From contig CP070657.1 of the NCBI GenBank assembly GCA_020355085.1, positions 1,166,615-1,201,900 on the forward strand: a stretch of DNA of 35,286 bases, given 5' to 3'. Made by a program: the position numbers and the translations under genes. The notes beneath the pieces are model-generated. The model was not told the DNA's origin, did no database searches, and saw only the letters and a program-made list of their open reading frames with translations. The DNA comes from Deltaproteobacteria bacterium. Its GTDB lineage: Bacteria; Desulfobacterota; DSM-4660; Desulfatiglandales; B25-G16. Every line of letters starts with the position of its first letter. The stretch's first letter is position 1. Below are positions 25,773 through 28,035 of the stretch, one piece after another.

Positions 25773-26186
25773 ATGGCAATAAAGCATTTATTGAGCATCT
25801 TAACACTATCAGCAGTGGTCCTGCTCTGGGTCTTCACCGCTACAGCAGCGACTTCGGATGATGTGCCCCGAATGAGTGCTCAGGAACTGAAGGGGCTGCT
25901 CGGCTCTGCTGACGTCATCATTCTGGATGTGCGCACAAGCAGAGACTTGGAAAGCAGCACATCTACCATCAAGGGGGCAATCAGGGCAGACCCGCAGGCG
26001 TTTGACACATGGGCAGATACCTACCCGAAAGACAAGACACTTGTCTTGTTCTGTGCCTGAACCAACGAAGGCACCAGTGCCAGGCTGGCACGGAAACTAA
26101 TGGACAGAGGTTTTTCAAAAGTCTATGCCCTGAAGGGAGGTTGGCGCGAATGGTCTGAGGCCGGGTATCCAATTCAAGGAAAGTGA
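25773..26186 (+). CDS. Exported single-domain rhodanese with an in-frame TGA (26058-26060) at the catalytic position: candidate selenoprotein or pseudogene
   Basis: Signal peptide 'MAIKHLLSILTLSAVVLLWVFTATAA'. The rhodanese N-terminal half ends '..KTLVLFCA' at the TGA. The same frame continues 'TNEGTSARLARKLMDRGFSKVYALKGGWREWSEAGYPIQGK' to a TGA at 26184-26186. The ORF track reports only 25773-26060. Confidence 0.65.
26074..26093 (+). promoter_or_regulatory. bSECIS-like hairpin 14 nt downstream of the in-frame UGA
   Basis: CC(A)GTGCC-AGGCT-GGCACGG gives 7 bp with a bulged A and a G-containing apical loop. Its position relative to the UGA fits bacterial SECIS geometry. Confidence 0.4.
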
Positions 26187-26259: not shown

Positions 26260-26300
26260 TTTACTGGGCAAAATAAGTGATTATATACAGTTTATCACTT
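26260..26300 (+). promoter_or_regulatory. Promoter (TTTACT-N16-TATATA) overlapped by a 7-N12-7 palindrome AAGTGAT..ATCACTT
   Basis: The palindrome at 26275-26300 spans the -10 hexamer directly upstream of iscU, making it a candidate repressor operator (Rrf2/IscR-type is only a guess). Confidence 0.35.
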
Positions 26301-26317
26301 AAATGGAGGCGACGGTT

Positions 26318-26836
26318 ATGTATTCAGAAACGGTAATGGATCACTTCAGGAACCCCAGAAACGTGGGTACAATTGAAGATGCCAACGGCGTTGGCGAGGT
26401 GGGAAACCCCATGTGCGGGGATATCATGACCATGTACCTGAGCATTAAAGATGATCGCATAGATGATATAAAATTCCAGACCTTTGGTTGCGGCGCTGCT
26501 ATTGCTGTTTCAAGTATGCTCACCGAGATGGCAAAAGGCAAGAGCATTGAAGAGGCGAAGAAGATCTCCAATAAAGATGTTGCTAACGCGCTCGGCGGTT
26601 TACCGAAAAACAAGCTTCATTGTTCTAATCTGGGCGCAGACGCGTTGCACAGTGCCCTTAAGGACTATGAAGATCGAAAAGCCGAAAAACCCAGAGGCGA
26701 GCTGAAGCGCAAGGAGAAGCACGAGCATGTTGGTGGCGAAAAGTGCTATTGTCCCTATTGTGATGTTGAAATCGGTGAGGGTGAAACTGTGTGCGCGAAT
26801 TGTGCGCTAACCGTTGATGTCGGTCAACAAGACTGA
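26318..26836 (+). CDS. iscU: Fe-S cluster scaffold IscU/NifU-N with a C-terminal CxxC-x12-CxxC extension
   Basis: 'HFRNPRNVG', 'GNPMCGD', 'FGCGAAIA' and 'LHCSNLG' give the three scaffold Cys plus Asp. The tail is '..KCYCPYCDVEIGEGETVCANCAL'. The ATG at 26318 follows GGAGG. Confidence 0.9.
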   Translation: MYSETVMDHFRNPRNVGTIEDANGVGEVGNPMCGDIMTMYLSIKDDRIDDIKFQTFGCGAAIAVSSMLTEMAKGKSIEEAKKISNKDVANALGGLPKNKLHCSNLGADALHSALKDYEDRKAEKPRGELKRKEKHEHVGGEKCYCPYCDVEIGEGETVCANCALTVDVGQQD

Positions 26837-26853: not shown

Positions 26854-28035
26854 ATGAATATTCTCAATCTGGATCACATTTCGGCAAACCAGCTTTTGCC
26901 TGAAGTCCAGGACGCCATGGTCAGTGCTATAAAAATGGGCTATGGCAATCCTTCGAGCCAACATAAAATGGGCGAACAGAGCTCTGAGGCCTTGGAAAAA
27001 GCCCGAGAATCCGTGGCAGCACTCATCAACTCCCCGTCTCCGAAAGAGGTGGTTTTTACGTCATGCGGTACCGAGTCCATTAATCATGCCATAAAGGGTG
27101 TGGCTCTGGCCAGTGCAGACAAAGGGAAGCACCTGGTCACATCCAACATCGAGCATAATTCCGTTATTCGAAGTATCCGTCGGCTGAAAATGATGGGTTA
27201 TCAGGTCACTTCAGTTCCCGTTGATAAATATGGACGGGTCAGTCCCGATCACGTAACCAAGGCTATAAGAGATGACACCATACTCGTATCGATCATGCAT
27301 GCCAATAATGAAATTGGAACTATTGAGCCGATAGAGGAAATCGCGTCAATCACCAAAGGCAAAAAGGTAACCTTTCATGTGGACGCAGTAGATTCCGTGG
27401 GAGTCCTGCCGATTGATGTGCAGAAACTGGGTGTAGACTTGCTCAGTTTCGCGTCTAATCCTTTTTACGGTCCTACCGGCGTGGGAGGTTTGTATATCCG
27501 GCGTGGAACCAACGTTTGGCCATTGCTTGAGGGAGGTATTCAGGAGAATAACAAAAGAGCTGGCACGGAAAATCTGATCGGTATCATCGGGTTGGGCGTT
27601 GCAGCTGAGCTTGCTAAACGGGATATGGACGCGAGACTTTCTCAGTTCAAGAGACTCAGAGAGAAGTTCCTCAAGGAGCTTCCCAATTACGTCGATGAGT
27701 ACATCATTAATGGACATCCGGAATACTGCCTGCCTAATCTTGTGTCTGTATCCTTAAAATACATCGAAGGAGAGAGCATTGTCCTCATGATGGACGATGA
27801 GGACATCGAAATATCTACACGGTCAGCGTGTGCATCGGGATCGCTGCGAGCATCGCACGTGTTACTGTCCATTGGGCTGCAGTTCGCTGAGGCTCAGGGT
27901 ACGCTGGTCATTACCTTTGGCTTGGAGAATACCGAGAAAGACGTGGTTCGGTTCCTGACCGCCTTAAAGGAAACGGTGAAAACCCTGCGTAACCTCTCTC
28001 CCCTATACAAAAAGGCTCATCAGACCGAGCACTAG
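26854..28035 (+). CDS. IscS/NifS-like class V aminotransferase-fold protein lacking the PLP-binding lysine
   Basis: 'TSCGTESINHA', 'HANNEIG', 'HVDAVDSVG', 'RAGTEN' and the active-site loop 'STRSACASGS' are conserved. The canonical 'SFSGHKIYGPKG' reads 'SFASNPFYGPTG'. The ATG at 26854 follows GGTGGAGG. Confidence 0.85.
   Translation: MNILNLDHISANQLLPEVQDAMVSAIKMGYGNPSSQHKMGEQSSEALEKARESVAALINSPSPKEVVFTSCGTESINHAIKGVALASADKGKHLVTSNIEHNSVIRSIRRLKMMGYQVTSVPVDKYGRVSPDHVTKAIRDDTILVSIMHANNEIGTIEPIEEIASITKGKKVTFHVDAVDSVGVLPIDVQKLGVDLLSFASNPFYGPTGVGGLYIRRGTNVWPLLEGGIQENNKRAGTENLIGIIGLGVAAELAKRDMDARLSQFKRLREKFLKELPNYVDEYIINGHPEYCLPNLVSVSLKYIEGESIVLMMDDEDIEISTRSACASGSLRASHVLLSIGLQFAEAQGTLVITFGLENTEKDVVRFLTALKETVKTLRNLSPLYKKAHQTEH

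Follow-up and report, generated by a model that had tools for sequence, protein, structure and literature searches.

A lysine-less IscS/NifS-like protein from a bacterium of the Desulfatiglandales, probably a non-catalytic partner of the IscU-type scaffold encoded upstream

In IscS of E. coli, the residues His104, Asp180, Gln183, Lys206 and Cys328 are each indispensable, and either K206A alone or Q183E alone abolishes desulfurase activity, while the K206A protein still holds some PLP, non-covalently (PMC9978102). Members of this family that lack the Schiff-base lysine are already known from Archaeoglobus and Methanosarcina. In the IscS of Archaeoglobus fulgidus (AfIscS) the lysine is replaced by aspartate, desulfurase activity is absent, and, when IscS and IscU are in complex, the cysteine serves as a ligand to a [2Fe-2S] cluster (PMC7585200, in part); the mobile cysteine ligating the cluster on IscU has been seen crystallographically (PMC7585200 and PMC13066941, both in part). 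IscS1 of Methanosarcina acetivorans is likewise Lys-less (PMC7585200, in part). The MIS system has been called the least studied system of Fe-S biogenesis (PMC13066941, in part), and both the way in which anaerobes living in sulfide build their Fe-S clusters and the role of "dead" IscS proteins are an open point in the field. No paper on a bacterial Lys-less IscS was found in the literature searched; Garcia et al. 2022, outside that set, may touch on the subject.

The gene described here lies in a window of 35,286 nucleotides (the whole stretch of DNA analysed, from contig CP070657.1), to which coordinates refer unless another locus is named. The host, a member of the Desulfatiglandales within the Thermodesulfobacteriota, is probably an anaerobe. 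The open reading frame (26854-28035, forward strand) starts with ATG, is preceded by a GGAGG sequence 8 nt upstream, and encodes without interruption a protein of 393 residues, P0001. This protein has the type-I IscS/NifS fold, with the architecture of class-V aminotransferases (fold type I), and matches PF00266 over model positions 3-371 of 371 (E 5.9e-73). The best NCBIfam model is TIGR03402 (NifS), with 440.1 bits against a cut-off of 530.75, followed by NF010611 (347.7 against 548) and TIGR02006 (341.8 against 643.2); among its best models, NifS and IscS, the protein thus stays below every curated equivalog cut-off. The AF2 model has a pLDDT of 91.5 and a pTM of 0.90, and its uncertain parts are confined to the Cys loop and the loop of residues 221-240. 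TM values to IscS, NFS1 and AfIscS are 0.91-0.96; superposition on AfIscS gives an rmsd of 1.3-1.6 A with a TM to target of 0.96-0.97, and superposition on NFS1 and IscS a TM of 0.93-0.96.

P0001 was aligned to solved desulfurases with phmmer, and its columns were compared by MAFFT with those of 150 family representatives and of 80 genome loci. The phmmer alignments have no gap in the PLP motif, which reads "sfasnpfygptg" in P0001 and "sfsahkmygpkg" in the solved desulfurases, and MAFFT gives the same column assignment in both sets. The His205-Lys206 pair of E. coli IscS is replaced by Asn202-Pro203 (27457-27462, forward strand, codons aat cct), so that the Schiff-base lysine is absent, Pro203 occupying the Lys206 column. 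In the same way Gln183 is replaced by Asp180 (27391-27393, forward strand; "hvdavdsvg" against "htdavqslg"), an aspartate also found in 120 of 120 close homologues. Misalignment or a frameshift is ruled out by the gapless alignment and by direct reading of the codons. The first-pass annotation had described a protein colinear with cysteine desulfurases in which His-Lys had become Asn-Pro and the Gln of the HxDAxQ motif had become Asp, with the persulfide Cys loop retained, and each of these assignments holds.

Two further changes, which that annotation had not listed, are Ser203 to Ala and the exchange of the substrate-carboxylate Arg354 for Val352 (27907-27909, forward strand, in "GTLVITFG"), the valine being present in 118 of the 120 homologues. 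In total, Gln183, Ser203, His205 and Arg354 of IscS are Asp, Ala, Asn and Val in P0001. Thr76, His104, Asn155, Asp180, Thr243 and Cys328 (E. coli numbering) are kept, the last as Cys326 in a flexible loop STRSACASG...SHVLLS (27814-27870, forward strand) that contains the "SACASGS" motif. The low pLDDT of residues 327-329 in the AF2 model is as expected of a mobile Cys loop. As both Lys206 and Gln183 are changed, each of them essential in E. coli IscS (PMC9978102), the earlier judgement that P0001 is probably no conventional cysteine desulfurase is, on the residues present, well supported. Binding of PLP is a separate matter: E. coli K206A keeps some of the cofactor, and P0001, judged from sequence alone, could do so too.

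The same residues were followed through the 120 closest database homologues, which are at least 73% identical, most of them derived from metagenomes or from MAGs labelled Deltaproteobacteria or Thermodesulfobacteriota. The lysine is missing from all 120, showing that its loss is neither chance nor a sequencing error; the Lys-less state has been selected and does not represent decay. The former Lys position holds Pro in 84, Thr in 23, Ala in six, Ser in five, and Tyr and Asn in one each, next to an invariant Asn202 at the former His205 position, so that the Asn of the Asn-Pro pair is universal in this set and the Pro predominant. Cys326 is likewise present in 120 of 120, in a loop (STRSACA...ASHVLLS) that is almost invariant. 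Invariance extends to several residues of the former pocket (His101, Asn152, Asp177, Asp180, Ser198, Ser201 and Asn202), compared with 104 of 393 columns overall, which hints that the pocket may still bind something. Comparison with a 92%-identical orthologue gives a dN/dS of 0.13 at a dS of 0.30. Fold, dimer-type architecture and mobile Cys loop are therefore under strong purifying selection.

Immediately upstream, separated by 17 nt from the start of the P0001 gene, lies a gene for an IscU/NifU-type scaffold protein (26303-26836, forward strand; PF01592, E 1.1e-50), the partner of the IscS-like gene, which scores 198.8 bits with TIGR03419 against a cut-off of 187.9. Its probable start is the ATG at 26318 (MYSETVMDHF...), which has a GGAGG sequence 7 nt upstream and fits the N-termini of homologues; a start at the ATG of 26303 is less probable. 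The protein carries a zinc-ribbon-like C-terminal tail of the form CxCPYC-x10-CxxC (26744-26803, forward strand), modelled as small strands following a disordered linker, in which C150, P151, Y152, C153, C164 and C167 do not vary among 13 partner IscU proteins. The match of this tail to Zn_Ribbon_1 is weak (E 0.002, below the cut-off). Each of the 13 orthologous loci detected among 60 relatives has an iscU gene directly before the IscS-like gene, as have 14 of 14 named Thermodesulfobacteriota loci, and the IscU proteins encoded there all bear such a tail; the iscU-iscS pair is thus a conserved two-gene unit. The canonical pairs sampled have a short IscU encoded downstream of IscS, and on none of them does IscU bear a CPYC zinc-ribbon tail.

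Other Cys- or His-rich tails were seen in the survey. Two canonical pairs from Bacillota MAGs (L072 and L085) have an IscU with a different Cys/His-rich tail (CDxCxxCCHDH...), and in three Nitrospirota MAGs (L051, L055 and L063) an IscS that is Lys-less but keeps the His (S-S-G-H-Q), with Gln183 and Arg354 absent, is followed by an IscU ending in a His/Glu-rich "GHEHEME" tail. An uncultured bacterium (L058, CAKZPX010000099.1) encodes a Lys-less IscS of another sublineage (S-A-A-Q-S), and the IscU downstream of it ends in a double zinc-ribbon-like tail (CICPFC...CKPC...CPDC...CPEC); here the loss of Lys and a Cys-rich tail on IscU may have become linked a second time, independently. Since the 14 named loci form one lineage, the combination of Lys loss and a tailed IscU can be counted as independent no more than twice.

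No other conserved neighbour (TusA, DsrE, rhodanese or Host_attach) was identified, as only IscS and IscU recur in the 28 loci of the lineage. The rhodanese and Host_attach genes recur in the same-genus locus only, and an Rrf2/IscR-like ORF occurs in four of the 28 loci. The rhodanese gene of the window (25773-26186, forward strand) encodes a signal peptide and has an in-frame TGA exactly at the position of the catalytic Cys (LFCA-U-TNEGTS), the frame running on to 26186; the RNA 3' of this TGA folds into a hairpin no better than those of shuffled sequences (z -0.1). A palindrome upstream of iscU (AAGTGAT-N12-ATCACTT, 26275-26300) is absent from that position in the orthologous loci, even when one mismatch per arm is allowed, and without such conservation a role as operator is unsupported. 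A scan for promoters and terminators yielded nothing decisive.

Closest in sequence is the copy of a Desulfatiglandales MAG (L031), which is the 92%-identical one. Copies with 55-64% identity occur in Syntrophorhabdales, Syntrophales, Syntrophobacterales and other Thermodesulfobacteriota, and copies with 50-52% in Planctomycetia and Scalindua. In these two groups of relatives the motif is mostly S-A-A-N-Q, i.e. Lys has become Gln, and judged from these sequences the Desulfatiglandales subclade has moved on from Gln to Pro and other residues at the former Lys site. The host-group survey, which used one genome per species, yielded 80 scored loci, 26 Lys-less and 54 Lys-bearing. Gln183 is absent as well from all 26 Lys-less proteins, Arg354 from every scorable one, and the loop Cys is present in every one whose column could be read; the Lys-bearing proteins have Arg354 in 54 of 54 and Gln183 in 53 of 54 cases. 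Among the best 150 family representatives (at 50% identity), 22 have no Lys; none of the 22 has Gln183, and the Cys is retained in all that are scorable, i.e. in every full-length protein. Across the Lys-less clade at large, Gln183 is replaced by A, V, S, T, D, Y, N or C, and the His205 position holds N, Q, H, S, R, G or I. The named Lys-less homologues retrieved all bear the source annotation "cysteine desulfurase", which is probably a systematic over-annotation.

Family tree analysis, with or without the trait columns, places P0001 inside a starred group of mostly Lys-less proteins, the named members of which come from Nitrospirae, Chloroflexota, Latescibacterota, Gemmatimonadota and Zixibacteria. 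The AfIscS-type group consists of L004, P0161, P0143 and P0171 (Odinarchaeota), and P0001 lies across a 98* branch from it; the tree leaves out IscS1 of M. acetivorans. The best tree with all Lys-less rows in one clade has a log-likelihood lower by 112 units (AU p 0.0015). A single Lys-less clade is thereby rejected, and the catalytic site must have been lost, or regained, more than once. That P0001 is a simple AfIscS orthologue is ruled out by the tree branch, by the AU test and by the separate AfIscS-type copy, L004.

The host's own genome, a single contig of 3.18 Mb that is about 82% complete by marker genes, contains five IscS-like genes: three canonical ones (L001-L003), of which two adjoin IscU/NifU-type genes, the AfIscS-type L004, and the P0001 gene. 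P0001 is 39-46% identical to the paralogues, and at least four IscU/NifU-type genes are present. L004 (G000:C1:967882-971961) encodes the second Lys-less IscS; its genes lie at positions 1094-1336, 1492-2661 and 2662-2928+ of that locus, with a TusA-like gene upstream and iscU downstream of iscS. The motifs "LSSNDLSGP", with the same "SSND" as in AfIscS, and "HVDATAAAA", the exchange of Arg354 for Ile, and a match to AfIscS 4eb5 with E 5.8e-127 characterize this second protein. The genome accordingly carries Lys-less IscS genes of two distinct lineages. No match to SufB/D (PF01458) was obtained in the 3.18-Mb contig, while all control genomes were matched, and Fe-S assembly in this genome therefore appears to rest on modules of the IscS-IscU type. 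Orthologues of P0001 are patchily distributed, occurring in 13 of 60 relatives and in one of six within the genus. In the genomes checked, the host's own and G015, canonical pairs accompany the module. One relative, assembled as a single contig of 1.7 Mb for which marker genes indicate about 80% completeness, retains exactly this module together with a single canonical IscS-IscU pair, a point in favour of a non-redundant role.

These surveys alter the wider reading given in the first-pass annotation. Its comparison with Archaeoglobus was apt in that AfIscS is indeed a Lys-less protein without activity, but P0001 belongs to a separate Lys-less lineage and the true AfIscS-type copy is L004. Nor is a bacterial Lys-less IscS a rarity, with 22 Lys-less proteins among the best 150 representatives and whole orders of Thermodesulfobacteriota that carry Lys-less copies. 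The suggested dependence of Fe-S assembly on sulfide rather than cysteine cannot be extended to the organism as a whole, since the canonical desulfurase that was to be looked for elsewhere in the genome exists in three copies.

By analogy with the archaeal protein, we propose that P0001 is probably a PLP-free, non-catalytic protein of the type-I IscS/NifS fold and a dedicated partner of the IscU encoded upstream. This proposal is based on the loss of catalytic residues, the concerted manner of that loss, purifying selection, the pairing with IscU, the structural model and the AfIscS precedent; it is weakened by the gene order, iscU before iscS, which is the reverse of both the Archaeoglobus and the canonical order. 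P0001 would form an (IscS-IscU)2 complex with its partner, as in the solved complex of Archaeoglobus, which belongs to another clade. Following the archaeal protein, Cys326 could be the fourth ligand of a nascent [2Fe-2S] cluster on IscU, or act in a persulfide relay, or both. Sulfur would then presumably be derived not from cysteine at P0001 but from ambient sulfide or from one of the three canonical paralogues. The zinc-ribbon-like tail of IscU appears to be a lineage-specific addition, which may dock to IscS or bind metal.

Several other explanations have to be weighed against this proposal. The former PLP pocket could have been re-used for another ligand, e.g. Fe(II) or a small molecule, making P0001 a donor of iron or sulfur instead of a passive partner. 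The seven pocket residues that are invariant in the 120 homologues would fit such a use, and the changes of Gln to Asp and of His to Asn are fixed and do not resemble drift. Two of these positions (Gln183 and His205) vary in the wider Lys-less clade, however, and the residues belong to core motifs which the whole family conserves for the sake of its fold, for which reason we regard re-use of the pocket as unlikely. That P0001 is still a cysteine desulfurase, working with non-covalent PLP or with another base in place of the lysine, is very improbable. His104, Asp180, Thr76, Asn155 and Cys328 are indeed kept, and the E. coli K206A protein retains some PLP, but K206A and Q183E are each inactive (PMC9978102), and P0001 is changed at both positions and at Ser203, His205 and Arg354 as well. 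Moreover, close relatives have Pro, Thr, Ala, Ser, Tyr or Asn at the former Lys site, so there is no conserved replacement base, and AfIscS, with a similar loss, is inactive (PMC7585200, in part).

A regulatory or decoy subunit, tuning Fe-S assembly without taking part in it through a heterodimer with a canonical IscS paralogue or through sequestration of IscU, could be accommodated in a genome with three canonical paralogues and four IscU-type genes, and the patchy distribution (13 of 60 relatives) is as expected of an accessory function. The strict pairing with its own tailed IscU and the invariance of the Cys loop nevertheless point to a dedicated, productive pair, and identity to the paralogues is just 39-46%, making such a role quite unlikely. 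Finally, the chance that the gene is a pseudogene, a decaying paralogue or the product of a misalignment or sequencing artefact is negligible: nothing beyond the missing Lys speaks for it, whereas the open reading frame is intact and preceded by a good ribosome-binding site, no gap interrupts the alignment, and hundreds of intact homologues share the same losses. A pseudogene is ruled out by this conservation together with the dN/dS of 0.13.

A bolder extension of the proposed non-catalytic partnership, tentative and in our view rather doubtful, is that the Lys-less IscS and the zinc-ribbon-tailed IscU make up a self-contained machine with which anaerobic Thermodesulfobacteriota assemble Fe-S clusters independently of cysteine. 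Sulfide would be used directly, and iron or electrons would be supplied either by the Cys-rich tail of IscU, which resembles a rubredoxin or zinc ribbon, or by the His/Asp/Asp/Asn pocket of IscS in its remodelled form. If true, such a machine would take the place of desulfurase chemistry, of ferredoxin and of helpers of the frataxin type. Apart from this, several features of the module were found described nowhere in the literature searched, namely a bacterial Lys-less lineage that is separate from the Archaeoglobus type and widespread in Thermodesulfobacteriota, an inverted gene order with a tailed IscU, and the coexistence with canonical and Archaeoglobus-type pairs in one genome. Lys loss is accompanied in these bacteria by a fixed change on the side of the partner scaffold, in the form of an added Cys4-5 tail and the inverted gene order. 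The module thus offers a clean bacterial two-gene system for asking whether the scaffold or ligand role of IscS is separable from desulfuration, and what supplies the sulfur.

Compared with the known systems, P0001 has the fold of E. coli IscS (1p3w, 3lvl) and human NFS1 (TM 0.93-0.96) as well as their mobile Cys loop, but is only 36-38% identical to them and is replaced at Lys206, Gln183, His205, Ser203 and Arg354. NifS and NifU of anaerobes (TIGR03402 and TIGR03419) are the best-scoring families for P0001 and its IscU as well, the latter scoring above the TIGR03419 cut-off, and the two-gene MIS system (MisS/MisU) of Garcia et al. (PMC13066941, in part) resembles the P0001 pair in being a minimal unit without chaperone or carrier genes. 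P0001 differs from them in scoring below every equivalog cut-off (440 against 530.75 bits), in the loss of catalytic residues, and in a gene order opposite to that of the canonical pairs sampled. The IscS1/IscU1 pair of Methanosarcina acetivorans, which is of the MIS type, offers a parallel in that a Lys-less paralogue exists beside canonical, active IscS-IscU pairs in one anaerobe (PMC7585200, in part); its IscS1 is archaeal, unlike P0001, and insoluble when expressed alone (PMC7585200, in part).

The most instructive comparison is with IscS2 (AF0564) and IscU of Archaeoglobus fulgidus (PDB 4eb5, 4eb7 and 4hvk, and the D199K variant 4r5f), which has the type-I desulfurase fold in common with P0001 at 44-45% identity. 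Lys, Gln183 and Arg354 are lost in both proteins, the AfIscS motifs being "SSND", "HIDATA" and "GTLLLTLG", and both retain the loop Cys and are encoded beside iscU. The differences are that the lysine has given way to Pro or Gln in the P0001 lineage and to Asp in AfIscS, that P0001 belongs to a different clade and has a bacterial host, and that, in contrast to the AfIscS type, the 28 loci of its lineage have no TusA or DsrE neighbour. Furthermore, the order of the genes, iscU followed by iscS, is the reverse of that in Archaeoglobus, and it is the IscU partner of P0001 that carries the zinc-ribbon-like tail.
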